The notes beneath the pieces were generated by a model. It was not told the origin of the DNA. It did not search any database and saw only the letters and a program-made list of their open reading frames with translations. Made by a program: the position numbers and the translations under genes. This document shows positions 3,216 through 39,871 of a stretch of 64,000 bases of DNA, piece by piece (position 1 is the first letter of the stretch; each line of letters begins with the position of its first letter). This DNA comes from Amphiscolops sp. MND2022 (taxonomy: Eukaryota), in assembly GCA_964187785.1 (NCBI GenBank), contig OZ076409.1, positions 16,308,001 through 16,372,000 on the forward strand, read 5' to 3'.

Positions 3216-3220
3216 GTCAG

Positions 3221-3769: not shown

Positions 3770-3904
3770 GCCTAATTGTTGTGATAAACTTATTAAATAG
3801 GTAAGTATTCCAACGCTATTGATAAGTTTTATTTGAAAGCAGACTGCGAAAGTGGTCTGCTGCCCAATTTTTGAACAAGGAACAAGCTAGTCTGCACTAA
3901 CTTA
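3770..3904 (+). ncRNA. SL RNA gene, uninterrupted (ends approximate; the 5' end may extend to ACTCTTT about 14 nt upstream)
   Basis: AG|GTAAG donor in a long hairpin, GCAGACTGC-GAAA-GTGGTCTGC hairpin, Sm site AATTTTTGA, terminal hairpin; linked to 5S. Confidence 0.85.
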
Positions 3905-3995: not shown

Positions 3996-4114
3996 GGCTA
4001 CGACCATACCATGTTGAATGCACCGGTTCTCGTCCGATCACCGAAGTTAAACAACATAGGGCCTGGTTAGTACTTGGATGGGAGACCGCTTGGGAACACC
4101 AGGTGTTGTAGCCT
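3996..4114 (+). rRNA. 5S rRNA: 5S rRNA
   Basis: Canonical 5S sequence plus T6 terminator. Confidence 0.98.
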
Positions 4115-4689
4115 TTTTTGTCAGAAATGTGGTTTAACTTCGGTGACAGTTTTGCAAAAGGGGTCAAATTGAAAAGATAGCAAAAAACGGACAACGCCAT
4201 TAGAAAGAGCGTCCAAAAAAAACCCATGCTGAAATTTTCGCCGCCATCACTTGAATTTTCATTGAGTTATGTCATTTTTACTATTTTCACAAAATGTGGT
4301 TTAACTTCGGTGACAGTTTTGCAAAAGGGGTCAAAATGAACAGATAGCAAAAAACGGACAACGGCACTGGAAAGAGGGCCCAAAATTACCCCTAAAACGT
4401 GTTTTTCACACTCCTGAGTCGACTTTTGATAATACATGGAATTTCATTTTTAAGCTTACTAATTTATGCTTTTCAGCATACATTTTCGTAATAGAGTCAA
4501 AATTTTGCTTTCTCACAATTTTTCTGGAATATTTTTGTTTCATCAGATGTCAATAACTTGAAACGTCGTCTTTTCATGAGAATTTCTCCTCAAAACAAGT
4601 TGTTGGCTGGTAATGGTAAGTCCGTACCGCAGATAGGACTCTCGCGCTCCAAAAATTGACTCTTTGCTTTTAGCCTAATTGTTGTGATA

Positions 4690-6123
4690 CTGCGGTAGCA
4701 GCAATTATTTGACCAAATTCATTCTCTCTCGCATCTGCTGAGGCAGGGACGATTATCTCACTTGAAAGAATGCCTAATTTCCTTACATTGGACTTTATAA
4801 TACCTTACTCCAAAGAAGAAATTACTAATCCTTCTCTAAAGCTTGTTACTTACAAAAGCTTTCTTTGCTCGTTACTTAAATGTTTACCTAGTGACGCTGT
4901 TAAACGCGTGACCTGCATGAAATTGCACGTGTACAAACATGCGCCGCACGAAAAGAAACTTGAGAGCGTCAAAGTTATCGGTCCAATTTCATTACAAAAC
5001 GAGTTTAATTCCATTATTTCTGATGGAATTTTGTTCAAAAATCGCAAGATTTATGCTCTACAAAACCACGATGTTACGTCCAATGCTTACCCCAAGCAAT
5101 TTACGATCAAATTTCGTATTTTACCACACTTCTTTCCTGATACCGATGTTATTTCGGCTTGCAATTTGAAAGATTTCAAACTTTCAAAGTTACGACACCA
5201 ATTAGAGAAACTTTCTGAGGAAATTGAAACCTACACAGGCATTTGTTATGCGGATGTGGAAATCCAGGACGAAGCCCAATTACAACAGCTCATTTCATGG
5301 AATGAAACCAGCTTTTTGAACAAATACTATCTAGAAGAAATTCCATTTAAATGCCAAATTCAAACATTACTACAATGCGATTTCTGCAGACAAAAGAAGC
5401 TCCAGTTTTTGGGGCACCATGTACGCCAATGCAAAGCCAAAAAGACACAATTAGAACCAGAATCTGAGGAAGATAGCATCTCAACCACGAAAACAAATGA
5501 AGAAAAAGAACTAGAAGCCACAGATGCAAACAAGAATAACACAGAACATACTTTCTATATTGATTTAGAAAAATGCCAAATTCGAAACATACATGACATG
5601 GACGAACTCCATAAAGGATTTAGCAAGCTTCTTGCTTTACAGGAATGCAAGCCTGTGAATGTCTTGAATGACAACAATGTAGTGAAAAACCAACTACGAC
5701 ATGTGAAGAATATTACTGAAGAAAAACAGCGGAAGCTTTTCAAACAACAAAACAGATGGGGAAGTCCTTCATCAGACGTCCCAATCAAGAACTTCTCAGA
5801 GTTTTGTGAACTCCGGGGAAAGCTAGATGTGTTCTACGACTCAACAAAAGGCGAAGAAACCCTTTACCTGATGAACCTATCCAAGAAAGTGACCCACATT
5901 TTCAAAAAGAAACAACAACCAAACTAACAAAACTACATTATACTAATTTTCAAACTTTGATTTCCATGTTAAATCAAAACTCTCATATTATACAATCATC
6001 ACCAACCAAGTCTTTCATTTACTCAATACTATAAGTATGCTAAGTTATTCATACTCAACACTTTAGTATTAATGTAAAGACTATTTGATTTATAAAGGCA
6101 AATTTCCAAATACATTCTTTAAA
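4690..6123 (+). mobile_element. Family B ORF1-only (HAL1-like) non-autonomous element, copy B1 (1.43 kb)
   Basis: 18-bp TSD AGCCTAATTGTTGTGATA (4672-4689 and from 6124); single ORF; no RT; 3' end ATTCTTTAAA. Confidence 0.9.
4770..5927 (+). CDS. Family B ORF1-like protein (385 aa) with extra C-terminal domain
   Basis: YPK..IKFR.LPHF, YTG, CDFC-X9-H-HVRQ-C align with the ORF1s of A/C/D/E. Confidence 0.85.
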   Translation: MPNFLTLDFIIPYSKEEITNPSLKLVTYKSFLCSLLKCLPSDAVKRVTCMKLHVYKHAPHEKKLESVKVIGPISLQNEFNSIISDGILFKNRKIYALQNHDVTSNAYPKQFTIKFRILPHFFPDTDVISACNLKDFKLSKLRHQLEKLSEEIETYTGICYADVEIQDEAQLQQLISWNETSFLNKYYLEEIPFKCQIQTLLQCDFCRQKKLQFLGHHVRQCKAKKTQLEPESEEDSISTTKTNEEKELEATDANKNNTEHTFYIDLEKCQIRNIHDMDELHKGFSKLLALQECKPVNVLNDNNVVKNQLRHVKNITEEKQRKLFKQQNRWGSPSSDVPIKNFSEFCELRGKLDVFYDSTKGEETLYLMNLSKKVTHIFKKKQQPN

Positions 6124-6124
6124 A

Positions 6125-6259
6125 GCCTAATTGTTGTGATAAACTTATTAAATAGGTAAGTATTCCAACCCTATTGATAAGTTTTATTTGAAAGCAGACT
6201 GCGAAAGTGGTCTGCTGCCCAATTTTTGAACAAGGAACAAGCTAGTCTGCACTAACTTA
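6125..6259 (+). ncRNA. SL RNA sequence downstream of B1
   Basis: Same SL sequence. Confidence 0.75.
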
Positions 6260-6350
6260 AAAGTTACGCGTATTTTGACCGAGAAAATTTTCGTATCATT
6301 GTACGTAATTTTGTTGTTAAGCATATAAAGCTATTGATTCTACAATGATC

Positions 6351-6469
6351 GGCTACGACCATACCATGTTGAATGCACCGGTTCTCGTCCGATCACCGAA
6401 GTTAAACAACATAGGGCCTGGTTAGTACTTGGATGGGAGACCGCTTGGGAACACCAGGTGTTGTAGCCT
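6351..6469 (+). rRNA. 5S rRNA: 5S rRNA
   Basis: Same sequence. Confidence 0.98.
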
Positions 6470-7045
6470 TTTTTGTCAGAAATGTGGTTTAACTTCGGTG
6501 ACAGTTTTGCAAAAGGGGTCAAATTGAAAAGATAGCAAAAAACGGACAACGCCATTAGAAAGAGCGTCCAAAAAAACCCCCATGCTGAAATTTTCGCCGC
6601 CATCACTTGAATTTTCATTGAGTTATGTCATTTTTACTATTTTCACAAAATGTGGTTTAACTTCGGTGACAGTTTTGCAAAAGGGGTCAAAATGAACAGA
6701 TAGCAAAAAACGGACAACGGCACTGGAAAGAGGGCCCAAAATTACCCCTAAAACGTGTTTTTCACACTCCTGAGTCGACTTTTGATAATACATGGAATTT
6801 CATTTTTAAGCTTACTAATTTATGCTTTTCAGCATACATTTTCGTAATAGAGTCAAAATTTTGCTTTCTCACAATTTTTCTGGAATATTTTTGTTTCATC
6901 AGATGTCAATAACTTGAAACGTCGTCTTTTCATGAGAATTTCTCCTCAAAACAAGTTGTTGGCTGGTAATGGTAAGTCCGTACCGCAGATAGGACTCTCG
7001 CGCTCCAAAAATTGACTCTTTGCTTTTAGCCTAATTGTTGTGATA

Positions 7046-9027
7046 CGGCGTTACTCTGTCAGCCTGCAAACTTTGTTTGCACAGCGCCATCTTGCAAATT
7101 TTGCAGCAAAAGTTGCAAAAGTAATGACTAATTTGAACACGAGTGAGCTTGATCAACATCATAATGAAAATGTTGAGCAAAATTGTTACAAAAATGCAGT
7201 TATTTCCTTGTCGAAATCGAACTCAAATATGGACAAATTACCAATTATTATCAACTTTGCCTTACCACTGACATCTGAAATGTTCAAAAACAGCAAATTA
7301 CTGGATTCAATGTTTGTGGAAGCTGTTATGGCCGTCAAAAACCGACTTAACTCCAATGAAATTACCATCTTCAAAACTACAATTTTACGCAACAAAGGCA
7401 ATTTGAAGTGTATTACTGTGATCATTCCTTACAAACTTGAAAATGCAGCTTCCTCTCTTATTCACGAGGGCATTACTCTTCGCAATCGGAAAATACGGCC
7501 TTATTCTGTCAATTATTCCAACCCGAACAACAATGTCTATCCAAAAAGATTACCAATATCTTTCCGAAACCTACCACACTTTCTGACGGATGAGGATATT
7601 TTGAGTAGCTGTGGTCTTCAAAACTTCAAATTTAGTAGCAAAATTTTTCATCAACAACGACGACTTCCTGATAGCAGCCTTTTTTATACAGGAGAGGCAA
7701 GAATTACAGTTTTAATTGACAATGAGAATGAGGAAAGTTTACTACAAAACTGGGCCAATAATGCATATGACAAAATGTTTAGTTCCAGTGGCATTTTTTT
7801 CAAATGTTGCTGTATCCCACTCCTCGAATGCTCTTTATGCGTCAATGAGAACCTTCCCAGTGCTCATCAACAATCAAGATGCCCAAAACAACTATCAGAC
7901 GAACAGCAAATACAGAAAAACAGTGAATCTCAGAACCAGAAGTTAACAACTGACTACGTTATGGAAACTGCAGAAACAGAGCCAATGTCTAATGAACCTG
8001 AACTGTCAGATTCAGATGATGCTGAACCAATCTCAAAGGCACCAAAGCAGACCGATGATGGTACTGAAACCGAATGCAACAACAACGTGGCAGAAACTGA
8101 ACAACCATGCATTAACAACTCAAAGAAAGATACCATTCCTATGCAAAAACCTAAACTAATGCATCGCTCAACTGAATGGAAATCCTCAACAGACCTTGCC
8201 CGAAATCAAGCAGATGACCAACAGTCAACGGCAAAGCATGGATATCATGAATACCCATTCTTTTTGGAAAAGAAACAAAACAAAATACTGGCACCCGAAA
8301 CTATTTTCAACGAAATACCTCCTATAAAAGAACATGTGATCAAAACCCAACAAACTTCTGGCTACATCAATACACTAGACAAGGAAAAGAAAATTCAAAG
8401 GACCTTTTCACTCGTACAACCACTGAAGAAAGAAAAACTCGAAGATCTTTTATCTGAATCAAACTGGAAACATTCTGACTCTAACACTATTTTAACTTCT
8501 CATTTTGAATTTTACTCATTGATCCGGAAGTTTGATCCATTCTATGATGCTACAAACCACCAAATTTACACTATTAATCTGGAGAATAAAATTGTACAAG
8601 TTTTCACTGCAGTTGAAAACTTATACAATGAAAACAAAAACTAAACTGAAAAATTTCGGACCTTTTTGACTGGAACTTTAAAGTTCTAAATCTCTACAAT
8701 ACCATCATCAATCAACCCAATTCCCAATTCTTTTCGAGCACTAGTTGTTCGCAACCTGTATGCAAAAAACGGGTTTTGAAAACAAACTCCTTCCAGGAGC
8801 AAACATCTTTTTTTCATACATTCTCCAAACTACATTATACTAACTTCATACCTAAAAAAAAACATTCCCATTTTGGCGCTTTCTCAAAAATGCCATAACC
8901 AAGCATCTTCATCTACATACTTCAGCTTTTTCAACACTTCAGTTACTCATAAACTCATTTTATACCTATACCTTAGACTTCATTACTTTTTACTTGTAAA
9001 TTCTCAGTTTTCAATAAATTCTTTAAA
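7046..9027 (+). mobile_element. Family C ORF1-only non-autonomous element, copy C1 (1.98 kb)
   Basis: 18-bp TSD AGCCTAATTGTTGTGATA; single ORF; 3' end AATAAATTCTTTAAA. Confidence 0.9.
7124..8644 (+). CDS. Family C ORF1-like protein (506 aa from first ATG) with extra C-terminal domain
   Basis: YPKRLPISFRNLPHF, FYTGEARI, CSLC-X8-H-QQSR-C; the ORF-track start at 7040 is a GTG inside the TSD. Confidence 0.85.
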   Translation: MTNLNTSELDQHHNENVEQNCYKNAVISLSKSNSNMDKLPIIINFALPLTSEMFKNSKLLDSMFVEAVMAVKNRLNSNEITIFKTTILRNKGNLKCITVIIPYKLENAASSLIHEGITLRNRKIRPYSVNYSNPNNNVYPKRLPISFRNLPHFLTDEDILSSCGLQNFKFSSKIFHQQRRLPDSSLFYTGEARITVLIDNENEESLLQNWANNAYDKMFSSSGIFFKCCCIPLLECSLCVNENLPSAHQQSRCPKQLSDEQQIQKNSESQNQKLTTDYVMETAETEPMSNEPELSDSDDAEPISKAPKQTDDGTETECNNNVAETEQPCINNSKKDTIPMQKPKLMHRSTEWKSSTDLARNQADDQQSTAKHGYHEYPFFLEKKQNKILAPETIFNEIPPIKEHVIKTQQTSGYINTLDKEKKIQRTFSLVQPLKKEKLEDLLSESNWKHSDSNTILTSHFEFYSLIRKFDPFYDATNHQIYTINLENKIVQVFTAVENLYNENKN

Positions 9028-9028
9028 A

Positions 9029-9373: not shown

Positions 9374-10163
9374 TTTTTGTCAGAAATGTGGTTTAACTTC
9401 GGTGACAGTTTTGCAAAAGGGGTCAAATTGAAAAGATAGCAAAAAACGGACAACGCCATTAGAAAGAGCGTCCAAAAAAACCCCCATGCTGAAATTTTCG
9501 CCGCCATCACTTGAATTTTCATTGAGTTATGTCATTTTTACTATTTTCACAAAATGTGGTTTAACTTCGGTGACAGTTTTGCAAAAGGGGTCAAAATGAA
9601 CAGATAGCAAAAAACGGACAACGGCACTGGAAAGAGGGCCCAAAATTACCCCTAAAACGTGTTTTTCACACTCCTGAGTCGACTTTTGATAATACATGGA
9701 ATTTCATTTTTAAGCTTACTAATTTATGCTTTTCAGCATACATTTTCGTAATAGAGTCAAAATTTTGCTTTCTCACAATTTTTCTGGAATATTTTTGTTT
9801 CATCAGATGTCAATAACTTGAAACGTCGTCTTTTCATGAGAATTTCTCCTCAAAACAAGTTGTTGGCTGGTAATGGTAAGTCCGTACCGCAGATAGGACT
9901 CTCGCGCTCCAAAAATTGACTCTTTGCTTTTAGCCTAATTGTTGTTCACGCGTCGGTTGGTTAGTTATCTTTGACTTTTGACTTCTGATTGTGAAAAACT
10001 TTTTTGACGAGTTTTTAACACATAGTACCGCTAAAACTCTAGAAGTTTAACGAAAAAATTGTTTATTTGGGTTTATACCCCTTTGCACTTTACCCCCTCT
10101 GGGTTTATACCCCCCCCCTTGGGTTTATACTCCCTTTTGGATAGAGGATAGGAAAACGACTTC

Positions 10164-11495
10164 ATGATTCTTGACGACGATGTTGCTTCTGGGAATGTGG
10201 ACGTAACAAAAATGCCGATGGATGGTCACGACAATACTGAATATATTCCACCTATTGAAAGCCTCAGCCTTGTTCAATTGTCGGAGCAATCGCAATCTGG
10301 GTCTCCGTCACTTACACCACCACCAACATCTTCTCTACAGAACATACAATCGGCAATAAACACGCAATTATACAGCGCTGTTGCAGGTGCCAACACTCCA
10401 CCATCTCGCACGACAGCAATAATTAAAATGAAAATCATTCCACCATTACAAAAACAACACTTCACAACCAAGGACAACTTCACTACTGCAACCAATCAAT
10501 GTTTTTCAGCAATTTTACGTTGCTTTCCACCTACATACAGACAACAGCTTACTATTTCAAAATCATTTACAATTGTCGGGACAAGACATTTGCATTCAAT
10601 TAATGTAGTGGCGCCTGTCACAGCCCAGGACATTGTATCAAAATTGCAAACAACAGGAATATCAATGCTTGGCAAAACTGTATTTCCATCGACAGACAAC
10701 TTTCTCACTAATTTACCTGGACTCTATCCACGATACACTCAAGTGAGACTTCTACATGCACCAGCACAATGCGATGACGAGACCTTAACAGAACTATTAC
10801 ATCTTCCGGCAGATACGACAATCATAGGATTCAAACGTCAGACAGACACGATTGATGGTATGTCCTTTTTCAATGGCAAAATAGCATGCACGATAAAAAT
10901 CAACAATACAACTCATGAAGAAGAACTACGACAATGGTCGTTGGATCAACATGAAAATCCCACAATGATTTGGGAGGAGATTCCTATCTTTGCATTTATT
11001 CCCTCACTTCACAATTGCACTTTCTGTAAACAACATAACAAACCTCACTTTGGACATGACATTGCCTGGTGCAAACATGCAAAAGCACATCCAACGACTC
11101 CACCATCACCTCCTCTACCACAACAGACATCAACTACAACTTCGCAGATGCCTCTGCCTCCTCCTTCTTCTTCTGCTACTCCATCTGTTATTGCGCCAAC
11201 TCCTCCTACTTTGGTTAACAACAACTTGGGTTTAGCTGACGTACCTGTTACAACGACTGATGATTGGCAACCTGTAACTAAGAAGACTTTCCCTAAACAC
11301 AGTTTGGTTAGAACGAGGTCTGTTATCAAGGCGAAAAGACCAAAACACCCGAGCCCTGTAACTGAAGTTAACCCCAATTTGACAGAACCTACGATGACGG
11401 CACCGTTCCTTCCGACTACACCCATTTACAATTCATTTGACAGCAAGCGGTATTCTAAATCTTCCAGGTCTAAACATGATAGTGTTCAGCCTTAA
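10164..11495 (+). CDS. Family A ORF1 (443 aa), nucleic-acid-binding protein with CCHC-like knuckle and Pro/Thr-rich tail
   Basis: Lies upstream of and overlaps ORF2; CTFC-X9-H-DIAW-C; homologous to D and E ORF1. Confidence 0.88.
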   Translation: MILDDDVASGNVDVTKMPMDGHDNTEYIPPIESLSLVQLSEQSQSGSPSLTPPPTSSLQNIQSAINTQLYSAVAGANTPPSRTTAIIKMKIIPPLQKQHFTTKDNFTTATNQCFSAILRCFPPTYRQQLTISKSFTIVGTRHLHSINVVAPVTAQDIVSKLQTTGISMLGKTVFPSTDNFLTNLPGLYPRYTQVRLLHAPAQCDDETLTELLHLPADTTIIGFKRQTDTIDGMSFFNGKIACTIKINNTTHEEELRQWSLDQHENPTMIWEEIPIFAFIPSLHNCTFCKQHNKPHFGHDIAWCKHAKAHPTTPPSPPLPQQTSTTTSQMPLPPPSSSATPSVIAPTPPTLVNNNLGLADVPVTTTDDWQPVTKKTFPKHSLVRTRSVIKAKRPKHPSPVTEVNPNLTEPTMTAPFLPTTPIYNSFDSKRYSKSSRSKHDSVQP

Positions 11496-14400
11496 TTGTA
11501 GAGGACTGAAGGATCCTCTTCGCCTTGCCATAACTCTGACTGCTTGTCAGCGTCATGGTGTGAAAAATTTTGTTCTTTTCCTACAAGAAACTAAGATTTC
11601 TGAATTTTCTATCAATCATAGAAAACTACTTACACAACACCATCTCTCGTACTGCATGGTTCCTGCCTCTGATACTGCAGGTGGATTGGTGACAATTTTT
11701 CCGTCTTCTTTCCACATAACTTACCGTTTTAACAATGAATCCATGCTCCTATTGCGTTTTCAAGAATATAATATCACTTTTAGCAACTGTTATGTCAATC
11801 CGCTTGATTTTCATCTGGAAAAGCTTAATCATGGTTTCCAACAGCTTTCTCTTCTATCTTCTAGTTCTCACATACTTGGTGGAGATTTTAACTGTTTATC
11901 AACCCGTGCTGACACATCTAATGTTAATATTCGAAGTAATGATTTCCGCTTACTTCGTTTTCGAAAACGTATGAATCTTATGCACCTGCTGGATGTCACA
12001 CCATGTGCTCCAGCCTCGGCTGCACATCTGTTCACACACTATGATAAAAGGTATAATACATTTAGTCGTTTAGACTACTTTTTTACATCGAGTGTTGACT
12101 TCTCTCTCGAAACTGAAGTCATTCCTTTTTCGGATCACAAGTTAATTAAGCTTTGTGAAGCGGCATCTTTTACTCCAGCAAACAGTCATTGGAAATTAAA
12201 TGACAACATTCTGCAGTATCACCATGCAGTACGGGAGGTTTTGGTGAGTTCTATTGCATCCCGGTCTACGGATTCAGAGTGTATCCTATCGAACTATGAT
12301 GTCATTAAAAATCTTGTTAGGGATAAACTCCGTATCTTTTGTATCCAGAATCATAGACGTAATCTTTTTGAAGAAAATCACCTGAAAGAACTAATACTTG
12401 ATGCAGAGAAATATCTACAAATTTTTGGCGTAGATTCCAAAACTATTTCTCGTCTTTCAGATTTAAATAAAAAATTGATGGAACTCCAGCACCAGAATGC
12501 TCGTAAATGCCTTAAACAGGTGAAAATGTTTTATGTTGATGCCAATCATGGTGATCCTCAAGTTATTAAAAAACACCTTTCAAATATGAGAAAATCCGTA
12601 CATATTTCTCAAATACAAGACGACAATGGTGAGGTCTTGACTACTGATGAGCAGATTTTTGAAGCTTTTCATATGCATTACTCAGATCGTTTTTCCATTC
12701 CGCAGGTCAATATCAATAATGATTCCCATGTCAAGCAGCTGCAAGATGACATTATTGGTACTTTTTGTAGTGTTAAGAGATCTGATATTGAAAATATTCG
12801 CACTCTAACCAGAGACCGGGATATGATTAGTGAACAAGAAGTTATTAATGCCATTACCAAATTGAATTCTGAAAGTGCTCCTGGTCCTGATGGCCTCACT
12901 TCCAACTTTTATAAAGCTCATCAGGAAGTTCTGAGTCCTCTACTCTGCAGGCTGTTTAACCAGATGGTTACTGATGGTTGGATGCCGCTATCTTTCTCCA
13001 GAGCCATTATAAAACTGATTCCTAAAAAACCCAACGCCAATCGTGTTGAAGATTTTCGTCCCATCAGTCTTATTAATACAGACCAAAAAATACTCTCTCA
13101 TATTTTGTCGGAACGAGTTCGCATTCCTGTTGATAAGCTTATTGGTCCCCACCAATCTGCTTATCTTCCTGGGCGTCACATACACTCTTCTTTATTGAAA
13201 GTCTCCTTAAACTTGGAAACCATGCCGTCAAATAATTCTCTCATCGCTATTGATTTTAGCAAAGCCTTTGATAAACTAAGTCGAACATTTATCTTTGCGT
13301 TATTAGAAAAAATTGGCTTGCACGAAAACACAGTCAAATTGATTCGCATCATGTATATGCATAATATTGCCTATCTTGACATCAATGGTCAACTCTCTCA
13401 ACCTGTTCTTATGGAAAATGGAGTTAGGCAAGGCTGCCCTTTATCCGCGCTCATTTTTATTCTAGGCATTGAACCCCTTCTTCATGCAATTCAGCACTCC
13501 TTCAACATTAGATCGGATATGCCGTTTAAAATTATCTCGTATGCGGATGATCTTACTTGTGGTATTCACACTGATAATATTCAAGATCTTTTTGATATCA
13601 TTGATACATTTTCTGGCGTTACGAATTTATCTGTTAATCAATCTAAAACTGAAATTCTTACATTGAGTAGTCTTCGTCCTCCTCTCCAATCTTGTGACGT
13701 TGTTAAAATACTGGGTGTTCACTTTAGTTTGGGCAACTCTGCTAGACCTTTCTCTGACTTCATGAACTTTGCGCAACGAAGTGGTCAGTATTGTAACAAA
13801 TACAATACTCTAATAGCTCGTGCGCGAAATATTCATACATTTGTTATGCAAAAATTAGTTCATGAAATTCGCCATCTTTATGTCCTAAGACCTCAATTAG
13901 ACAAAATTGATAGTATTTTCATTGATGCTATTTGGCTTGGCCGCAAACACAATCTAGGTAAATTTATTCTCCAGAGACCATGGTCGGCGATGGGTATTGG
14001 TCTTCGGAATTTCCGTCAAACTATTGTTTCTTCCAAAATTATCGACTGCTTCAACTTTCTCTACGAAAACAATTTGCCCGATAATCTTAAACTGTTACTC
14101 CAATCTAGGTTTTTTAGAAATCTTAAATCCTTGTGTCGCACATTTAAATGCTCCATTTCCTTTCCAAACTCCACCACCTGTACTCTTTCTATTGATGACC
14201 GTCAACTTGTGATTTCCACCCCTCTTCCCACTAAAAAAATTTATCATTTTCTTACAGACCGGTCAACTTCGGCAGCTTTTTGCCGAATCTCTAGTATGGC
14301 AGAGAAATTATCTGTTCCTGCTTTTTCTATCTTTTCCTTCATCCGTCACTTGTGGAAGCATCCCTCGTAGGCTGCTTTTGAGAAAAATTATTTATATCTG

Positions 14401-14727
14401 TTTTTCCTTAATTGCTACTTAGAGAAAACCAAAAAACAAGATTTGGGCTTAGTGTTTTCAGCTCATTGCTGTTTTTGTGGTGTTGAAGACGAAACCTTCT
14501 CACATCTTATTACTGAATGTCAGCATATTCCATCTCTCAATTTCTTTAAAACTCCTAGTGATTGCTGTCTAGATTTTCAAAACATGAATGCAATTTACCC
14601 TTTCAAACGTCTGATAGCTCTCCTAATTTCCTCATGGAGCGAAGATCCGCTCAGATTCTCTAAATATTTTTTGAATTGTGTCTCCTTAAGGCATCCAACC
14701 ATTCTTAACCATCAGGCTGTAACGTAA
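11476..14727 (+). pseudogene. Family A ORF2 (APE-RT, about 1083 aa) with premature TAG at 14368-14370
   Basis: SLNCRGL, LQET, GGDFN, SDH, YADD motifs; TAT in A1/A3 is TAG here, removing the C-terminal Cys/His finger. Confidence 0.9.
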
Positions 14728-14880
14728 CTAAGTTCAATTATATTTATATCTTGCAACCAATGAACCATACACTTACTTTGATTAGCTACTGAATTGTCTG
14801 AATTATGAACTTGGTCATGACCTACGCTATTTGATTGATTCATTTGTTCCTACTGATTTACTGTAATTAATTCTTTAAAA

Positions 14881-21653: not shown

Positions 21654-23635
21654 CGGCGTTACTCTGTCAGCCTGCAAACTTTGTTTGCACAGCGCCATCT
21701 TGCAAATTTTGCAGCAAAAGTTGCAAAAGTAATGACTAATTTGAACACGAGTGAGCTTGATCAACATCATAATGAAAATGTTGAGCAAAATTGTTACAAA
21801 AATGCAGTTATTTCCTTGTCGAAATCGAACTCAAATATGGACAAATTACCAATTATTATCAATTTTGCGTTACCACTGACATCTGAAATGTTCAAAAACA
21901 GCAAATTACTGGATTCAATATTTGTGGAAGCTGTTATGGCCGTCAAAAACCGACTTAACTCCAATGAAATTACCATCTTCAAAACTACAATTTTACGCAA
22001 CAAAGGCAATTTGAAGTGTATTACTGTGATCATTCCTTACAAACTTGAAAATGCAGCTTCCTCTCTTATTCACGAGGGCATTACTCTTCGCAATCGGAAA
22101 ATACGGCCTTATTCTGTCAATTATTCCAACCCGAACAACAATGTCTATCCAAAAAGATTACCAATATCTTTCCGAAACCTACCACACTTTCTGACGGATG
22201 AGGATATTTTGAGTAGCTGTGGTCTTCAAAACTTCAAATTTAGTAGCAAAATTTTTCATCAACAACGACGACTTCCTGATAGCAGCCTTTTTTATACAGG
22301 AGAGGCAAGAATTACAGTTTTAATTGACAATGAGAATGAGGAAAGTTTACTACAAAACTGGGCCAATAATGCATATGACAAAATGTTTAGTACCAGTGGC
22401 ATTTTCTTCAAATGTTGCTGTATCCCACTTCTCGAATGCTCTTTATGCGTCAATGAGAACCTTCCCAGTGCTCATCAACAATCAAGATGCCCAAAACAAC
22501 TATCAGACGAACAGCAAATACAGAAAAACAGTGAATCTCAGAACCAGAAGTTAACAACTGACTACGTTATGGAAACTGCAGAAACAGAACCAATGTCTAA
22601 TGAACCTGAACTGTCAGATTAAGATGATGCTGAACCAATCTCAAAGGCGCCAAAGCAGACCGATGATGGTACTGAAACCGAATGCAATAACAACGTGGCA
22701 GAAACTGAACAATCATGCATTAACAACTCAAAGAAACATACCATTCCTATGCAAAAACCTAAACTAATGCATCGCTCAACTGAATGGGAATCCTCAACAG
22801 ACCTTGCCCGAAATCAAGCAGATGACCAACAGTCAACGGCAAAGCATGGATATCATGAATACCCATTCTTTTTGGAAAAGAAACAAAACAAAATACTGGC
22901 ACCCGAAACTATTTTCAACGAAATACCTCCTATAAAAGAACATGTGATCAAAACCCAACAAACTTCTGGCTACATCAATACACTAGACAAGGAAAAGAAA
23001 ATTCAAAGGACCTTTTCACTCGTACAACCACTGAAGAAAGAAAAACTCGAAGATCTTTTATCTGAATCAAACTGGAAACATTCTGACTCTAACACTATTT
23101 TAACTTCTCATTTTGAATTTTACTCATTGATCCGGAAGTTTGATCCATTCTATGATGCTACAAACCACCAAATTTACACTATTAATCTGGAGAATAAAAT
23201 TGTACAAGTTTTCACTGCAGTTGAAAACTTATACAATGAAAACAAAAACTAAACCGAAAAAATTCGGACCTTTTGGAAAGGAACTTTAAAGTTCTAAATC
23301 TCTACAATACCATCATCAATCAACCCAATTCCCAATTCTTTTCGAGCACTAGTTGTTCGCAACCTGTATGCAAAAAACGGGTTTTGAGAACAAACTCCTT
23401 CCAGGAGCAAACATCTTTTTTTCATACATTCTCCAAACTACATTATACTAATTTCATACCAAAAAAAAAACATTCCCATTTTGGCGCTTTCTCAAAAATG
23501 CCATAACCAAGCATCTTCATCTACATACTTCAGCTTTTTCAACACTTCAGTTACTCATATACTCATTTTATACATATACCTTAGACTTCATTACTTTTTA
23601 CTTGTAAATTCTCAGTTTTCAATAAATTCTTTAAA
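21654..23635 (+). mobile_element. Family C element, copy C2
   Basis: Same junctions and TSD as C1. Confidence 0.9.
21732..23252 (+). pseudogene. Family C ORF with nonsense TCA>TAA at 22620-22622
   Basis: Comparison with C1. Confidence 0.85.
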
Positions 23636-24556: not shown

Positions 24557-26542
24557 CGGCGTTACTCTGTCAGCCTGCAAACTTTGTTTGCACAGCGCCA
24601 TCTTGCAAATTTTGCAGCAAAAGTTGCAAAAGTAATGACTAATTTGAACACGAGTGAGCTTGATCAACATCATAATGAAAATGTTGAGCAAAATTGTTAC
24701 AAAAATGCAGTTATTTCCTTGTCGAAATCGAACTCAAATATGGACAAATTACCAATTATTATCAACTTTGCCTTACCACTGACATCTGAAATGTTCAAAA
24801 ACAGCAAATTACTGGATTCAATGTTTGTGGAAGCTGTTATGGCCGTCAAAAACCGACTTAACTCCAATGAAATTACCATCTTCAAAACTACAATTTTACG
24901 CAACAAAGGCAATTTGAAGTGTATTACTGTGATCATTCCTTACAAACTTGAAAATGCAGCTTCCTCTCTTATTCACGAGGGCATTACTCTTCGCAATCGG
25001 AAAATACGGCCTTATTCTGTCAATTATTCCAACCCGAACAACAATGTCTATCCAAAAAGATTACCAATATCTTTCCGAAACCTACCACACTTTCTGACGG
25101 ATGAGGATATTTTGAGTAGCTGTGGTCTTCAAAACTTCAAATTTAGTAGCAAAATTTTTCATCAACAACGACGACTTCCTGATAGCAGCCTTTTTTATAC
25201 AGGAGAGGCAAGAATTACAGTTTTAATTGACAATGAGAATGAGGAAAGTTTACTACAAAACTGGGCCAATAATGCATATGACAAAATGTTTAGTTCCAGT
25301 GGCATTTTTTTCAAATGTTGCTGTATCCCACTCCTCGAATGCTCTTTATGCGTCAATGAGAACCTTCCCAGTGCTCATCAACAATCAAGATGCCCAAAAC
25401 AACTATCAGACGAACAGCAAATACAGAAAAACAGTGAATCTCAGAACCAGAAGTTAACAACTGACTACGTTATGGAAACTGCAGAAACAGAGCCAATGTC
25501 TAATGAACCTGAACTGTCAGATTCAGATGATGCTGAACCAATCTCAAAGGCACCAAAGCAGACCGATGATGGTACTGAAACCGAATGCAACAACAACGTG
25601 GCAGAAACTGAACAACCATGCATTAACAACTCAAAGAAAGATACCATTCCTATGCAAAAACCTAAACTAATGCATCGCTCAACTGAATGGAAATCCTCAA
25701 CAGACCTTGCCCGAAATCAAGCAGATGACCAACAGTCAACGGCAAAGCATGGATATCATGAATACCCATTCTTTTTGGAAAAGAAACAAAACAAAATACT
25801 GGCACCCGAAACTATTTTCAACGAAATACCTCCTATAAAAGAACATGTGATCAAAACCCAACAAACTTCTGGCTACATCAATACACTAGACAAGGAAAAG
25901 AAAATTCAAAGGACCTTTTCACTCGTACAACCACTGAAGAAAGAAAAACTCGAAGATCTTTTATCTGAATCAAACTGGAAACATTCTGACTCTAACACTA
26001 TTTTAACTTCTCATTTTGAATTTTACTCATTGATCCGGAAGTTTGATCCATTCTATGATGCTACAAACCACCAAATTTACACTATTAATCTGGAGAATAA
26101 AATTGTACAAGTTTTCACTGCAGTTGAAAACTTATACAATGAAAACAAAAACTAAACTGAAAAATTTCGGACCTTTTTGACTGGAACTTTAAAGTTCTAA
26201 ATCTCTACAATACCATCATCAATCAACCCAATTCCCAATTCTTTTCGAGCACTAGTTGTTTGCAACCTGTATGCAAAAAACGGGTTTTGAAAACAAACTC
26301 CTTCCAGGAGCAAACATCTTTTTTTCATACATTCTCCAAACTACATTATACTAACTTCATACCTAAAAAAAAAAAAACATTCCCATTTTGGCGCTTTCTC
26401 AAAAATGCCATAACCAAGCATCTTCATCTACATACTTCAGCTTTTTCAACACTTCAGTTACTCATATACTCATTTTATACCTATACCTTAGACTTCATTA
26501 CTTTTTACTTGTAAATTCTCAGTTTTCAATAAATTCTTTAAA
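24557..26542 (+). mobile_element. Family C element, copy C3
   Basis: Same junctions and TSD as C1. Confidence 0.9.
24635..26155 (+). CDS. Family C ORF1-like protein, intact
   Basis: Same protein as C1. Confidence 0.85.
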   Translation: MTNLNTSELDQHHNENVEQNCYKNAVISLSKSNSNMDKLPIIINFALPLTSEMFKNSKLLDSMFVEAVMAVKNRLNSNEITIFKTTILRNKGNLKCITVIIPYKLENAASSLIHEGITLRNRKIRPYSVNYSNPNNNVYPKRLPISFRNLPHFLTDEDILSSCGLQNFKFSSKIFHQQRRLPDSSLFYTGEARITVLIDNENEESLLQNWANNAYDKMFSSSGIFFKCCCIPLLECSLCVNENLPSAHQQSRCPKQLSDEQQIQKNSESQNQKLTTDYVMETAETEPMSNEPELSDSDDAEPISKAPKQTDDGTETECNNNVAETEQPCINNSKKDTIPMQKPKLMHRSTEWKSSTDLARNQADDQQSTAKHGYHEYPFFLEKKQNKILAPETIFNEIPPIKEHVIKTQQTSGYINTLDKEKKIQRTFSLVQPLKKEKLEDLLSESNWKHSDSNTILTSHFEFYSLIRKFDPFYDATNHQIYTINLENKIVQVFTAVENLYNENKN

Positions 26543-27464: not shown

Positions 27465-29444
27465 CGGCGTTACTCTGTCAGCCTGCAAACTTTGTTTGCA
27501 CAGCGCCATCTTGCAAATTTTGCAGCAAAAGTTGCAAAAGTAATGACTAATTTGAACACGAGTGAGCTTGATCAACATCATAATGAAAATGTTGAGCAAA
27601 ATTGTTACAAAAATGCAGTTACTTCCTTGTCGAAATCGAACTCAAATATGGACAAATTACCAATTATTATCAACTTTGCCTTACCACTGACATCTGAAAT
27701 GTTCAAAAACAGCAAATTACTGGATTCAATGTTTGTGGAAGCTGTTATGGCCGTCAAAAACCGACTTAACTCCAATGAAATTACCATCTTCAAAACTACA
27801 ATTTTACGCAACAAAGGCAATTTGAAGTGTATTACTGTGATCATTCCTTACAAACTTGAAAATGCAGCTTCCTCTCTTATTCACGAGGGCATTACTCTTC
27901 GCAATCGGAAAATACGGCCTTATTCTGTCAATTATTCCAACCCGAACAACAATGTCTATCCAAAAAGATTACCAATATCTTTCCGAAACCTACCACACTT
28001 TCTGACGGATGAGGATATTTTGAGTAGCTGTGGTCTTCAAAACTTCAAATTTAGTAGCAAAATTTTTCATCAACAACGACGACTTCCTGATAGCAGCCTT
28101 TTTTATACAGGAGAGGCAAGAATTACAGTTTTAATTGACAATGAGAATGAGGAAAGTTTACTACAAAACTGGGCCAATAATGCATATGACAAAATGTTTA
28201 GTTCCAGTGGCATTTTTTTCAAATGTTGCTGTATCCCACTCCTCGAATGCTCTTTATGCGTCAATGAGAACCTTCCCAGTGCTCATCAACAATCAAGATG
28301 CCCAAAACAACTATCAGACGAACAGCAAATACAGAAAAACAGTGAATCTCAGAACCAGAAGTTAACAACTGACTACGTTATGGAAACTGCAGAAACAGAG
28401 CCAATGTCTAATGAACCTGAACTGTCAGATTCAGATGATGCTGAACCAATCTCAAAGGCACCAAAGCAGACCGATGATGGTACTGAAACCGAATGCAACA
28501 ACAACGTGGCAGAAACTGAACAACCATGCATTAACAACTCAAAGAAAGATACAATTCCTATGCAAAAACTCAAACTAATGCATCGCTCAACTGAATGGAA
28601 ATCCTCAACAGACCTTGCCCGAAATCAAGCAGATGACCAACAGTCAACGGCAAAGCATGGATATCATGAATACCCATTCTTTTTGGAAAAGAAACAAAAC
28701 AAAATACTGGCACCCGAAACTATTTTCAACGAAATACCTCCTATAAAAGAACATGTGATCAAAACCCAACAAACTTCTGGCTACATCAATACACTAGACA
28801 AGGAAAAGAAAATTCAAAGGACCTTTTCACTCGTACAACCACTGAAGAAAGAAAAACTCGAAGATCTTTTATCTGAATCAAACTGGAAACATTCTGACTC
28901 TAACACTATTTTAACTTCTCATTTTGAATTTTACTCATTGATCCGGAAGTTTGATCCATTCTATGATGCTACAAACCACCAAATTTACACTATTAATCTG
29001 GAGAATAAAATTGTACAAGTTTTCACTGCAGTTGAAAACTTATACAATGAAAACAAAAACTAAACTGAAAAATTTCGGACCTTTTTGACTGGAACTTTAA
29101 AGTTCTAAATCTCTACAATACCATCATCAATCAACCCAATTCCCAATTCTTTTCGAGCACTAGTTGTTCGCAACCTGTATGCAAAAAACGGGTTTTGAAA
29201 ACAAACTCCTTCCAGGAGCAAACATCTTTTTTTCATACATTCTCCAAACTTCATTATACTAACTTCATACCAAAAAAAACATTCCCATTTTGGCGCTTTC
29301 TCAAAAATGCCATAACCAAGCATCTTCATCTACATACTTCAGCTTTTTCAACACTTCAGTTACTCATATACTCATTTTATACCTATACCTTAGACTTCAT
29401 TACTTTTTACTTGTAAATTCTCAGTTTTCAATAAATTCTTTAAA
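27465..29444 (+). mobile_element. Family C element, copy C4
   Basis: Same junctions and TSD as C1. Confidence 0.9.
27543..29063 (+). CDS. Family C ORF1-like protein, intact
   Basis: Near-identical to C1. Confidence 0.85.
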   Translation: MTNLNTSELDQHHNENVEQNCYKNAVTSLSKSNSNMDKLPIIINFALPLTSEMFKNSKLLDSMFVEAVMAVKNRLNSNEITIFKTTILRNKGNLKCITVIIPYKLENAASSLIHEGITLRNRKIRPYSVNYSNPNNNVYPKRLPISFRNLPHFLTDEDILSSCGLQNFKFSSKIFHQQRRLPDSSLFYTGEARITVLIDNENEESLLQNWANNAYDKMFSSSGIFFKCCCIPLLECSLCVNENLPSAHQQSRCPKQLSDEQQIQKNSESQNQKLTTDYVMETAETEPMSNEPELSDSDDAEPISKAPKQTDDGTETECNNNVAETEQPCINNSKKDTIPMQKLKLMHRSTEWKSSTDLARNQADDQQSTAKHGYHEYPFFLEKKQNKILAPETIFNEIPPIKEHVIKTQQTSGYINTLDKEKKIQRTFSLVQPLKKEKLEDLLSESNWKHSDSNTILTSHFEFYSLIRKFDPFYDATNHQIYTINLENKIVQVFTAVENLYNENKN

Positions 29445-30365: not shown

Positions 30366-32346
30366 CGGCGTTACTCTGTCAGCCTGCAAACTTTGTTTGC
30401 ACAGCGCCATCTTGCAAATTTTGCAGCAAAAGTTGCAAAAGTAATGACTAATTTGAACACGAGTGAGCTTGATCAACATCATAATGAAAATGTTGAGCAA
30501 AATTGTTACAAAAATGCAGTTATTTCCTTGTCGAAATCGAACTCAAATATGGACAAATTACCAATTATTATCAACTTTGCCTTACCACTGACATCTGAAA
30601 TGTTCAAAAACAGCAAATTACTGGATTCAATGTTTGTGGAAGCTGTTATGGCCGTCAAAAACCGACTTAACTCCAATGAAATTACCATCTTCAAAACTAC
30701 AATTTTACGCAACAAAGGCAATTTGAAGTGTATTACTGTGATCATTCCTTACAAACTTGAAAATGCAGCTTCCTCTCTTATTCACGAGGGCATTACTCTT
30801 CGCAATCGGAAAATACGGCCTTATTCTGTCAATTATTCCAACCCGAACAACAATGTCTATCCAAAAAGATTACCAATATCTTTCCGAAACCTACCACACT
30901 TTCTGACGGATGAGGATATTTTGAGTAGCTGTGGTCTTCAAAACTTCAAATTTAGTAGCAAAATTTTTCATCAACAACGACGACTTCCTGATAGCAGCCT
31001 TTTTTATACAGGAGAGGCAAGAATTACAGTTTTAATTGACAATTAGAATGAGGAAAGTTTACTACAAAACTGGGCCAATAATGCATATGACAAAATGTTT
31101 AGTTCCAGTGGCATTTTTTTCAAATGTTGCTGTATCCCACTTCTCGAATGCTCTTTATGCGTCAATGAGAACCTTCCCAGTGCTCATCAACAATCAAGAT
31201 GCCCAAAACAACTATCAGACGAACAGCAAATACAGAAAAACAGTGAATCTCAGAACCAGAAGTTAACAACTGACTACGTTATGGAAACTGCAGAAACAGA
31301 GCCAATGTCTAATGAACCTGAACTGTCAGATTCAGATGATGCTGAACCAATCTCAAAGGCGCCAAAGCAGACCGATGATGGTACTGAAACCGAATGCAAT
31401 AACAACGTGGCAGAAACTGAACAACCATGCATTAACAACTCAAAGAAAGATACCATTCCTATGCAAAAACCTAAACTAATACATCGCTCAACTGAATGGG
31501 AATCCTCAACAGACCTTGCCCGAAATCAAGCAGATGACCAACAGTCAACGGCAAAGCATGGATATCATGAATACCCATTCTTTTTGGAAAAGAAACAAAA
31601 CAAAATACTGGCACCCGAAACTATTTTCAACGAAATACCTCCTATAAAAGAACATGTGATCAAAACCCAACAAACTTCTGGCTACATCAATACACTAGAC
31701 AAGGAAAAGAAAATTCAAAGGACCTTTTCACTCGTACAACCACTGAAGAAAGAAAAACTCGAAGATCTTTTATCTGAATCAAACTGGAAACATTCTGACT
31801 CTAACACTATTTTAACTTCTCATTTTGAATTTTACTCATTGATCCGGAAGTTTGATCCATTCTATGATGCTACAAACCACCAAATTTACACTATTAATCT
31901 GGAGAATAAAATTGTACAAGTTTTCACTGCAGTTGAAAACTTATACAATGAAAACAAAAACTAAACTGAAAAATTTCGGACCTTTTTGACTGGAACTTTA
32001 AAGTTCTAAATCTCTACAATACCATCATCAATCAACCCAATTCCCAATTCTTTTCGAGCACTAGTTGTTCGCAACCTGTATGCAAAAAACGGGTTTTGAG
32101 AACAAACTCCTTCCAGGAGCAAACATCTTTTTTTCATACATTCTCCAAACTTCATTATACTAACTTCATACCAAAAAAAAACATTCCCATTTTGGCGCTT
32201 TCTCAAAAATGTCATAACCAAGCATCTTCATCTACATACTTCAGCTTTTTCAACACTTCAGTTACTCATATACTCATTTTATACATATACCTTAGACTTC
32301 ATTACTTTTTACTTGTAAATTCTCAGTTTTCAATAAATTCTTTAAA
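30366..32346 (+). mobile_element. Family C element, copy C5
   Basis: Same junctions and TSD as C1. Confidence 0.9.
30444..31964 (+). pseudogene. Family C ORF with nonsense GAG>TAG at 31044-31046
   Basis: Comparison with C1. Confidence 0.85.
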
Positions 32347-33268: not shown

Positions 33269-35249
33269 CGGCGTTACTCTGTCAGCCTGCAAACTTTGTT
33301 TGCACAGCGCCATCTTGCAAATTTTGCAGCAAAAGTTGCAAAAGTAATGACTAATTTGAACACGAGTGAGCTTGATCAACATCATAATGAAAATGTTGAG
33401 CAAAATTGCTACAAAAATGCAGTTATTTCCTTGTCGAAATCGAACTCAAATATGGACAAATTACCAATTATTATCAACTTTGCGTTACCACTGACATCTG
33501 AAATGTTCAAAAACAGCAAATTACTGGATTCAATATTTGTGGAAGCTGTTATGGCCGTCAAACCCGACTTAACTCCAATGAAATTACCATCTTCAAAACT
33601 ACAATTTTACGCAACAAAGGCAATTTGAAGTGTATTACTGTGATCATTCCTTACAAACTTGAAAATGCAGCTTCCTCTCTTATTCACGAGGGCATTACTC
33701 TTCGCAATCGGAAAATACGGCCTTATTCTGTCAATTATTCCAACCCGAACAACAATGTCTATCCAAAAAGATTACCAATATCTTTCCGAAACCTACCACA
33801 CTTTCTGACGGATGAGGATATTTTGAGTAGCTGTGGTCTTCAAAACTTCAAATTTAGTAGCAAAATTTTTCATCAACAACGACGACTTCCTGATAGCAGC
33901 CTTTTTTATACAGGAGAGGCAAGAATTACAGTTTTAATTGACAATGAGTATGAGGAAAGTTTACTACAAAACTGGGCCAATAATGCATATGACAAAATGT
34001 TTAGTACCAGTGGCATTTTTTTCAAATGTTGCTGTATCCCACTTCTCGAATGCTCTTTATGCGTCAATGAGAACCTTCCCAGTGCTCATCAACAATCAAG
34101 ATGCCCAAAACAACTATCAGACGAACAGCAAATACAGAAAAACAGTGAATCTCAGAACCAGAAGTTAACAACTGACTACGTTATGGAAACTGCAGAAACA
34201 GAGCCAATGTCTAATGAACCTGAACTGTCAGATTCAGATGATGCTGAACCAATCTCAAAGGCGCCAAAGCAGACCGATGATGGTACTGAAACCGAATGCA
34301 ATAACAACGTGGCAGAAACTGAACAATCATGCATTAACAACTCAAAGAAACATACCATTCCTATGCAAAAACCTAAACTAATGCATCGCTCAACTGAATG
34401 GGAATCCTCAACAGACCTTGCCCGAAATCAAGCAGATGACCAACAGTCAACGGCAAAGCATGGATATCATGAATACCCATTCTTTTTGGAAAAGAAACAA
34501 AACAAAATACTGGCACCCGAAACTATTTTCAACGAAATACCTCCTATAAAAGAACATGTGATCAAAACCCAACAAACTTCTGGCTACATCAATACACTAG
34601 ACAAGGAAAAGAAAATTCAAAGGACCTTTTCACTCGTACAACCACTGAAGAAAGAAAAACTCGAAGATCTTTTATCTGAATCAAACTGGAAACATTCTGA
34701 CTCTAACACTATTTTAACTTCTCATTTTGAATTTTACTCATTGATTCGGAAGTTTGATCCATTCTATGATGCTACAAACCACCAAATTTACACTATTAAT
34801 CTGGAGAATAAAATTGTACAAGTTTTCACTGCAGTTGAAAACTTATACAATGAAAACAAAAACTAAACTGAAAAATTTCGGACCTTTTTGACTGGAACTT
34901 TAAAGTTCTAAATCTCTACAATACCATCATCAATCAACCCAATTCCCAATTCTTTTCGAGCACTAGTTGTTCGCAACCTGTATGCAAAAAACGGGTTTTG
35001 AAAACAAACTCCTTCCAGGAGCAAACATCTTTTTTTCATACATTCTCCAAACTACATTATACTAACTTCATACCTAAAAAAAAACATTCCCATTTTGGCG
35101 CTTTCTCAAAAATGCCATAACCAAGCATCTTCATCTACATACTTCAGCTTTTTCAACACTTCAGTTACTCATATACTCATTTTATACCTATACCTTAGAC
35201 TTCATTACTTTTTACTTGTAAATTCTCAGTTTTCAATAAATTTTTTAAA
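33269..35249 (+). mobile_element. Family C element, copy C6
   Basis: Same 5' junction as C1; 3' end variant AATTTTTTAAA and one substitution in the downstream TSD. Confidence 0.9.
33347..34866 (+). pseudogene. Family C ORF with frameshift near 33562
   Basis: GTCAAACCCGA versus GTCAAAAACCGA in other copies. Confidence 0.85.
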
Positions 35250-38844: not shown

Positions 38845-39871
38845 TTTTTGTCAGAAATGTGGTTTAACTTCGGTGACAGTTTTGCAAAAGGGATCAAATT
38901 GAAAAGATAGCAAAAAACGGACAACGCCATTAGAAAGAGCGTCCAAAAAAACCCCCATGCTGAAATTGTCGCCGCCATCACTTGAATTTTCATTGAGTTA
39001 TGTCATTTTTACTATTTTCACAAAATGTGGTTTAACTTCGGTGACAGTTTTGCAAAAGGGGTCAAAATGAACAGATAGCAAAAAACGGACAACGGCACTG
39101 GAAAGAGGGCCCAAAATTACCCCTAAAACGTGTTTTTCACACTCCTGAGTCGACTTTTGATAATACATGGAATTTCATTTTTAAGCTTACTAATTTATGC
39201 TTTTCAGCATACATTTTCGTAATAGAGTCAAAATTTTGCTTTCTCACAATTTTTCTGGAATATTTTTGTTTCATCAGATGTCAATAACTTGAAACGTCGT
39301 CTTTTCATGAGAATTTCTCCTCAAAACAAGTTGTTGGCTGGTAATGGTAAGTCCGTACAGCAGATAGGAGTCTCGCGCTCCAAAAATTGACTCTTTGCTT
39401 TTAGCCTAATTGTTGTGATTAAGCTCATACACCTTAATTCCTCACGGTATCATCTGTATAGTATCCTGTTTGGTTATACGGTGATTCCACCCCTTTTAAA
39501 CCCTGTCGTGGGACAAAGGGAGAGCCATCTCCTGCTACGGCGCTCGCTGGGTAAGGGATTTCTTGCTAATCAGCTCGTGTGTGGTTGACGTTGCTTGAGA
39601 TCCTGAAAAACCGAGAGCATTGTCCCCCAATTTGGCCTGAGGACCAAGTTGAAGCTTCCTTGGCGGGTGGCTGTTAGCAGTCCTCAAAACGCTACCAGTC
39701 TTAACGTCGTTTCCTCGGCCGTGGAAAGCCTTGGACCGTTCGTTTCCCCCTAAACTCGTCTTACTTTTTCTCCCCTTCTGAGGCTCTTGAAACTAGCGAA
39801 AGTTACTTCAATCCTCCCTATTTTCCTTTTTACCTCAGTTACTTTGAATCGATTACCAATTGTTACGAAAA

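Follow-up and report, generated by a model that had tools for sequence, protein, structure and literature searches.

Two families of retroelements, B and C, each with a single open reading frame (ORF) homologous to ORF1 of long interspersed nuclear elements (LINEs), occupy a 64,000-nucleotide stretch of the Amphiscolops sp. MND2022 genome (contig OZ076409.1, positions 16,308,001 to 16,372,000; G000:C1:16308001-16372000 in a genome assembly of 1.07 Gb), called the window below. With a probability of about 0.7, they belong to an old clade of non-autonomous, protein-coding retrotransposons without long terminal repeats (non-LTR), which reside in arrays of spliced leader (SL) RNA and 5S rRNA genes and use the ORF2 of autonomous, SL-specific LINEs. 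A sequence-only reading of the window had described B and C as two families. Both are real, but they are not separate oddities: they belong to a single clade whose protein carries an additional C-terminal domain (CTD).

The window is a tandem array with a unit of ~904 bp, and each unit contains one SL RNA gene and one 5S rRNA gene. The insertion target is the SL RNA gene, since the sequence duplicated around the inserts matches the start of an acoel spliced leader as given in the accessible part of the published description (PMC9911081). On the numbering of that leader, the 18-bp duplication of B and C, AGCCTAATTGTTGTGATA, corresponds to positions -1 to +17, which places the inserts within the SL gene, close to its 5' end. 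The 18-bp length proposed earlier holds, with exact duplications in 10 of the 11 window copies and one mismatch in the C copy at 33269. At all right junctions, as at 6124-6240 in the window, a complete SL RNA coding region is left downstream, and the element tail replaces its upstream region. The duplication of autonomous family A is shorter than those of other families (12-14 bp; 9933-9946 and 15784-15795 in the window).

The anatomy of the elements agrees with the sequence-only reading in most respects. There are two copies of B (1434 and 1430 bp) and nine of C (1980-1986 bp), with ORFs of 385 and 506 amino acids, respectively, and seven of the 11 ORFs are intact (B 2/2, C 5/9). Neither family contains a remnant of ORF2: Pfam finds neither endonuclease (EN) nor reverse transcriptase (RT) domains, and the comparison of the three-frame translated A, D and E ORF2 regions with B and C (tblastn) is insignificant, with a best E of 0.11 among the matches listed. 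The proteins are indeed far diverged from the ORF1s of A, D and E (20-27% identity), and B and C are 29% identical to each other. The 3' untranslated region (UTR), which had been described as each family's own, is so for its body, but not for its last ~35-43 nt, which match autonomous families, nor for a 15-nt motif common to ORF1-only families. This motif is found 193-218 nt from the 3' end in B, C and the further ORF1-only families F, K and H; it was found neither in eight autonomous elements (A, D, E, L, M, N, O and X29) nor in families G, P and I. An alignment of the 5' heads of C, K, H and N yields a plausible stem with little covariation. An Rfam search over 2700-10200 (E<=1) for known RNA families or ribozymes in the element heads returned 5S alone.

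Genome searches and 77 fetched stretches place eight or more ORF1-only families (B, F, C, K, I, G, P and H, plus decayed ones) in the SL/5S arrays of this genome, together with seven or more autonomous families that are specific for SL genes (A, D, E, L, M, N and O). The ORF1-only proteins are monophyletic in a tree of 18 ORF1s from the genome (bootstrap 98; Shimodaira-Hasegawa-like approximate likelihood ratio test, SH-aLRT, 95). The same clade is recovered (SH-aLRT 94.6, bootstrap 98) in a tree of 56 rows, in which the 18 genome rows are joined by 38 database proteins; these come from a set of 44 with a near-full core, less six near-duplicates. Its sister (94.6/99) is lineage X, made up of autonomous LINEs that have neither an SL head nor an array context in the loci seen, and the RT tree likewise separates X from the SL LINEs. 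A joint clade of ORF1-only elements and SL LINEs is rejected by the approximately unbiased (AU) test (p-AU 0.002, for an unrooted grouping that was defined after inspection of the tree). By these sequence comparisons, the ORF1 of the ORF1-only elements groups with a non-SL LINE lineage and not with the SL-specific LINEs. With ORF1 identities of 20-27% to the SL LINEs, the grouping with X and the rejected joint clade, we discarded the idea that B and C are internal-deletion derivatives of the LINE that mobilises them. Relatives with the CTD are also present in other public datasets. The 3' ends of lineage X (loci L029 and L035) carry a stretch similar to TCTTTTT(C/G)AAGCCT, then a short hairpin and a GT, an arrangement that loosely recalls the SL junction. 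Loci L102-L106 hold more autonomous families with the same type of ORF1, dispersed and with neither SL head nor tail motif.

The ORF1-only protein consists of a tandem RNA recognition motif (RRM), usually a zinc knuckle, and a terminal CTD of ~125 residues. The model of the B protein, built from an alignment of eight sequences (predicted local distance difference test, pLDDT, of 74), shows a tandem-RRM N-terminus, the knuckle, a disordered acidic linker and the CTD. Its N-terminus matches the tandem-RRM structures of HuD/HuR (E 4e-4), and an Atlas search returns CCHC and ZCCHC3-like clusters (0.88-0.90), which is a lead and no more. Two RRMs with a CCHC knuckle make up the Tx1-clade type of ORF1, a type that is matched here. 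The knuckle is present in five of eight families; G, P and H are without it and keep the CTD.

The CTD is a second region of similarity between B and C, at the C-terminus (E 1e-6), and its profile matches every complete ORF1-only protein with E of 1e-31 to 1e-48. None of 10 autonomous ORF1s is matched (best score 2 bits), and in 17 further loci with matches to the profile no EN or RT lies adjacent. Modelled alone, the CTD is predicted with a pLDDT of 90.7 and a predicted template modelling score (pTM) of 0.83. The profile and structure searches proposed for the B and C proteins thus recognise the tandem RRM and leave the CTD with no convincing match: Foldseek finds nothing at E<=0.001 in the PDB and viral (BFVD) libraries, the best VIA-align Z is 4.1, Pfam gives nothing significant and the Atlas gives no usable match. 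The modelled CTD possibly has a new fold, although the lack of a structural match is no proof of this. Similarity to small DNA-binding domains appears in weak rows (Z about 3) and was not accepted. An origin as a piece of ORF2 was also rejected, the best blastp E exceeding 1.9 among the matches listed, with no profile match in the fetched autonomous elements. A search for longer fused forms of the CTD gave one match in 96 candidates, itself a B copy, and is weak evidence.

The ORF of these elements is under purifying selection. In the RRM core, two young, unsaturated ORF1-only pairs, K vs J and H22 vs H23, have ratios of nonsynonymous to synonymous divergence (dN/dS) of 0.14 and 0.28, respectively. 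Between families it is 0.12-0.24 where dS (1.4-3.4) is computable, being undefined for three pairs. Open frames are found in 34 of 42 full-length copies of C, 13 of 16 of F and all eight of B. The suggestion that the ORF1-only elements are long-lived is supported. The core ratios run from 0.12 to 0.28 where dS can be computed, and dS approaches saturation between families.

The insertion signatures come from a survey of 97 inserts in 14 array regions, which were picked for ORF1-only matches and are biased accordingly. Copies that are truncated at the 5' end but complete at the 3' end, and that carry the usual duplication, make up 2 of 44 in C, 1 of 17 in F and none of 8 in B, and several inserts stand in tandem with one duplication between them. 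Three off-target copies of H and copies of the autonomous N' and D carry an SL head, consisting of the first 16-17 nt of the leader, end in AAGCC and are flanked by long duplications that start at that GCC. This signature is found at five of the six loci tested; the sixth, a D+K tandem, is without a clean duplication. The off-target H copies are young, with flank duplications 98-99.7% identical. One of them is 5'-clipped, and two other dispersed autonomous copies are without the SL head. The pattern common to H and to autonomous N' and D suggests the same machinery for both classes. It also suggests SL +1 as the start of the element RNA and base pairing between the nicked target and a few nucleotides of read-through. 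Taken together, the 5'-truncated copies with perfect duplications, the off-target signature and the 3' tails similar to those of autonomous families point to mobilisation of B/C-type elements in trans. The off-target flank duplications (loci L022, L023, L026, L101 and L108) measure from 175 to ~885 bp, compared with 18 bp on target (H, 305, 180 and ~885; N' and D, 576 and 175). At L028:584-7701, the 3' end of a dispersed full-length D abuts a 5'-clipped K with nothing in between, the result of a template jump or a tandem insertion.

These signatures bear on a very unlikely explanation, according to which the elements are old immobile insertions multiplied by unequal crossing-over and gene conversion alone, their shared tails being conversion tracts. 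Array duplication speaks for it: two duplicated blocks (21.7 and 12.4 kb, at +35.3 and +36.2 kb) supply twins for 6 of the 11 window copies, and tail types are clustered regionally. Yet passive copying would not be expected to yield 5'-truncated copies with perfect duplications, tandem inserts with a single duplication between them, young off-target H copies with near-identical flanks, or mostly open frames and dN/dS below 1. Block duplication does mean that copy number mixes transposition with array turnover. The window holds 11 ORF1-only elements and five autonomous ones (three A, one of them partial; one D; one partial E). The assembly contains 141 instances of the shared 3' junction; 100 of these were read and classed by hand, according to the tail and neighbouring ORF matches, as 65 ORF1-only, 33 autonomous and 2 unclear, with C as the commonest single family. 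The claim that ORF1-only elements outnumber the autonomous ones is right about the excess, but the excess is smaller genome-wide, about 2:1 among the classed junctions, and is due in part to array duplication.

The 3' tails point to candidate helpers. The tail of C is that of N and N' at 32 of 35 nt in 30 of 44 copies, and a second tail, in the other 14, is that of M at 31 of 35. The F tail equals that of L at 35 of 35 (43 nt identical), the K tail matches N' at 32 of 35, and the H tail matches N and N' at 30-32 of 35. Matches to A and D reach 16-23 of 35 (16-22 for C), and the range between one autonomous family and another is 12-25 of 35; A and D, being at this background level, were rejected as helpers of B and C. 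The likely helpers of C are then N or M, those of F are L or O, and those of K and H are probably N-like. The proposal that B and C borrow an SL-specific ORF2 in trans is consistent with the signs of target-primed insertion and the SL-LINE-like tails; the likely helpers, however, lie outside the window and are not A or D. The C copies with the M tail, spread over three contigs, fall together when arranged by body sequence (3 label changes vs 12.1 when shuffled, 0/500). Two F copies acquired the O tail by way of a 28-nt piece joined at a target-like site, which indicates one route of tail change. A terminal TYTTYRRAAG motif is common to all families, so some cross-use is possible. The 5' heads may be borrowed like tails, since A-like heads occur on family P and on a decayed B/F-like family, Q (L034:2614-2630).

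The helper ORF2 combines an apurinic/apyrimidinic endonuclease-like (APE) domain, found by Pfam in the ORF2 of A and E, with an RT; it is target-specific, and the solved structure most similar to it is human L1 ORF2p. At least seven, and probably at least eight, autonomous L1-group families in the C1, C12 and C13 arrays use one SL site, their RT being ~44-47% identical to that of A. The ORF1s of L, M, N and O are long (670-810 residues), with low-complexity N-terminal extensions.

These data are best explained by the following cycle. An element inserted after SL nucleotide +17 would be transcribed from the SL promoter, giving an RNA that, judging by the off-target ends, has the leader's first 16-17 nt at its start and a few bases of the downstream SL copy at its end. 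Its own ORF1 protein would be translated and would package this RNA, presumably in cis. The last ~35-43 nt, derived from autonomous SL LINEs, would then recruit the helper ORF2, which would nick the SL gene and prime reverse transcription. Occasional replacement of the tail would allow a family to change its helper, and unequal exchange in the array would multiply the copies further. The net relation to the helper may be parasitic, as the sequence-only reading supposed in speaking of hyperparasites, and the CTD may have a part in it.

Several observations weigh against this reading. Mobilisation and expression are predictions from sequence. dS is saturated or undefined in most between-family pairs, the CTD is less constrained than the core (dN/dS 0.23-0.68 where computable), the linker is near neutral and exceeds 1 in H, and within-family pN/pS is just 0.40-0.61 overall, a weak measure calculated with no correction for transition bias. 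The B tail has no helper match (best 25 of 35 among 9 autonomous tails), its exact pattern being confined to eight B copies, and the tail of P and one tail type of F are likewise unmatched. Tail identity could also come from gene conversion between neighbours and have no function. Much of the copy number is due to array duplication: in the window, the six ORF1-only copies with twins, as well as all three A copies, have them 35-36 kb upstream and near-identical. Two broken loci mix the classes: in L034, a B/F-like CTD is fused directly with the back part of a D-like ORF1, behind which lie fragments of EN and RT, and L032 is a fusion of autonomous-type and B-like ORF1. L034 is riddled with stop codons and resembles a recombinant in decay; it is the nearest to a refuting case. 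Finally, full-length protein searches scored 85 of 521 and 107 of 311 candidates (150 of 331 and 150 of 325 in two more), so their counts are lower bounds. At loci L032, L098 and L107, ORF1-only elements that are chimeric or have internal deletions form tandem arrays, now decayed, with a period of 2.5-3.1 kb.

The chimeras and the search depth would suit the least probable explanation that we weighed, namely that every family arose by deletion from an autonomous parent with a CTD, absent from the assembly or recently extinct, and that the selection predates the loss of ORF2. The arrays are hard to assemble, the search counts are lower bounds, L034 is a broken chimera, and, as far as the accessible text of PMC13534243 goes, recurrent loss of ORF2 is common at fly telomeres. 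At least eight parents would have to be missing, however, and young pairs of ORF1-only elements show selection. The CTD searches in which every candidate was scored (119/119, 55/55 and 14/14) gave no intact ORF2-linked context among those fetched. The proposed search for a B- or C-like ORF1 linked to an ORF2 likewise came out negative for autonomous elements in the fetched contexts. Many database relatives also lie on element-sized contigs (1.4-2.1 kb), although short contigs are common anyway.

Two further accounts keep mobilisation in trans and differ in what the protein does. A tentative extension, less probable than the main reading, is that the clade is a satellite retroelement lineage with a hijacking module: a foreign-LINE ORF1 would have gained the CTD, which overrides the cis-preference of the helper, and tails would be swapped as address labels, keeping pace with the helper that happens to be active. 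If so, the CTD would let the ribonucleoprotein (RNP) recruit the ORF2 of several SL LINE families and would be a natural adaptor that loads cargo RNA onto a site-specific reverse transcriptase. The other account, which we consider unlikely, has the elements cooperate with their helpers by aiding delivery of helper RNPs to SL arrays, or restrain them by poisoning helper RNPs and capping damage to SL genes. Long retention, purifying selection and a private domain would fit such a role, as would the coexistence of at least seven helper families with the clade and the dispersed D joined directly to K, which fits shared RNPs; HeT-A Gag, proposed in the accessible part of PMC5537684 to improve helper delivery, is a precedent. 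On the other hand, all helper families examined have an open ORF1 of their own, autonomous copies reach the same site with nothing to indicate a need of help, and, in contrast to domesticated genes, the elements are mobile, exist in many copies and are broken in many cases.

Coordinates of the features are collected in Table 1. In addition, a putative Sm-like site lies near 3866-3874, 3' of the SL exon of the empty unit. The spacer 3' of the 5S gene (4131-4380) contains a ~100-bp internal direct repeat as well as a short stretch that matches 5S in reverse, and one repeat unit has an internal deletion (52018-52177) just past the SL donor site.

Table 1. Retroelements and array features in the window.
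Feature	Position	Strand	Remarks
SL exon, uninterrupted, in empty unit	3770..3800	+	GT donor next, at 3801
5S rRNA gene of repeat unit	3996..4114	+	Rfam
B copy 1, ORF1-only, 1434 bp	4690..6123	+	
Duplications of B copy 1, 18 bp	left 4672..4689, right 6124-6141	+	SL gene -1..+17
B ORF, 385 aa	4770..5927	+	Tandem RRM (~aa 4-196), CX2C..H..C knuckle, acidic linker, C-terminal domain
B CTD	5538..5918	+	Confined to ORF1-only families in those tested; no structural match
B 3'UTR motif, 15 nt	5932..5946	+	
B 3' tail	6089..6123	+	Best autonomous match 25/35 nt (background level)
C copy 1, ORF1-only, 1982 bp, intact	7046..9027	+	Duplications 7028-7045 and 9028-9045
C 5'UTR	7046..7123	+	93-96% shared with K and H; resembles head of autonomous N
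C ORF, 506 aa	7124..8644	+	B-type architecture
C CTD	8246..8623	+	
C 3'UTR shared motif	8829..8843	+	
C 3' tail	8993..9027	+	32/35 nt as in autonomous N and N' (both outside window)
Autonomous A	9946..14879	+	ORF1 + APE-RT ORF2, L1 group; more copies 15795-20731 and 1-2864 (partial); tail unlike B or C
C copy 2	21654..23635	+	Premature stop, also in twin 35.3 kb upstream
C copy 3	24557..26542	+	Intact
C copy 4	27465..29444	+	Intact
C copy 5	30366..32346	+	Premature stop
C copy 6	33269..35249	+	Frame broken near start; one mismatch in right duplication
B copy 2	36171..37600	+	Intact
Autonomous D	39420..44593	+	
C copy 7	46419..48400	+	Intact
C copy 8	53069..55052	+	Frameshift within CTD, 461 aa
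C copy 9	56879..58860	+	Intact
Autonomous E	60687..64000	+	Extends past window end

LINE proteins normally prefer their own RNA, and how protein-coding passengers bypass this preference is an open question even for HeT-A. Here, at least seven helper and at least eight passenger families share one target, natural tail swaps (C between N and M; F between L and O) are ready-made specificity controls, and one conserved domain is found in all complete passenger proteins and in none of the tested helpers. The system makes the rules of trans-mobilisation and the role of passenger ORF1 directly testable, and it has a bearing on engineered site-specific retrotransposons that insert cargo RNA. Within the literature searched (subscription papers, Repbase and supplements lying outside it), we found no L1-group, SL-targeted radiation with private-domain passengers, an ORF1 from a different lineage and interchangeable tails, nor a description of APE-type LINEs that target SL genes in an acoel-type animal. 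What is new is the private domain, the mixed ancestry and the tail swapping; ORF1-only, site-specific and abundant elements are known from HeT-A and HAL1.

SL genes are also the target of CRE, SLACS and CZAR, which use a restriction-like endonuclease. According to the accessible parts of the cited papers, on which the comparisons in the rest of the text are based, NeSL also inserts in spliced leader genes with a restriction-like endonuclease, whereas the helpers described here are of the APE type (PMC4640811). They resemble the Tx1 elements (Keno/U2, and Tx1-Mar with SINEU), which are APE-RT elements with small-RNA-gene targets, proposed co-transcription and passengers that share the target. 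The Tx1 targets named there are U2, U5, 5S, microsatellites and transposons, not SL genes, and the SINEU passengers code for no protein (PMC4494074).

Among ORF1-only LINEs, HeT-A, HAL1 and Ag-Sponge are known (PMC5786205, PMC5753468). The sequence-only reading gave HAL1 as the precedent, which is right in that elements with ORF1p only exist, but HeT-A-type elements are closer. HAL1 is non-autonomous, codes for ORF1p alone and has an L1-group helper, as B and C would; it is described as derived from L1 by internal deletion, with several independent origins in mammals (PMC5753468, PMC5786205). Unlike HAL1, B and C share with the helper short ends only, not ORF1 or the UTR body, and they are site-specific and have no poly(A) tail. 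Ag-Sponge is an ORF1-only non-autonomous LINE as well, but is derived from CR1 (PMC5786205). HeT-A is site-specific and is thought to borrow the Pol of TART or TAHRE (PMC5537684), and ~40% of fly telomeric families are ORF1-only, in monophyletic clades of 2-6 families (PMC13534243). Like B and C, these Drosophila telomeric elements carry ORF1 alone and are found at a specific site beside autonomous partners. They belong to the Jockey clade and to chromosome ends, however, whereas B and C use an internal SL/5S nick site, with a target duplication and L1-group APE helpers. HeT-A Gag closely resembles TAHRE Gag, whereas the ORF1 of B and C groups away from its helpers and has an extra domain. The lifestyle of B and C works like that of HeT-A, yet they are members of neither the HeT-A nor the HAL1 group.

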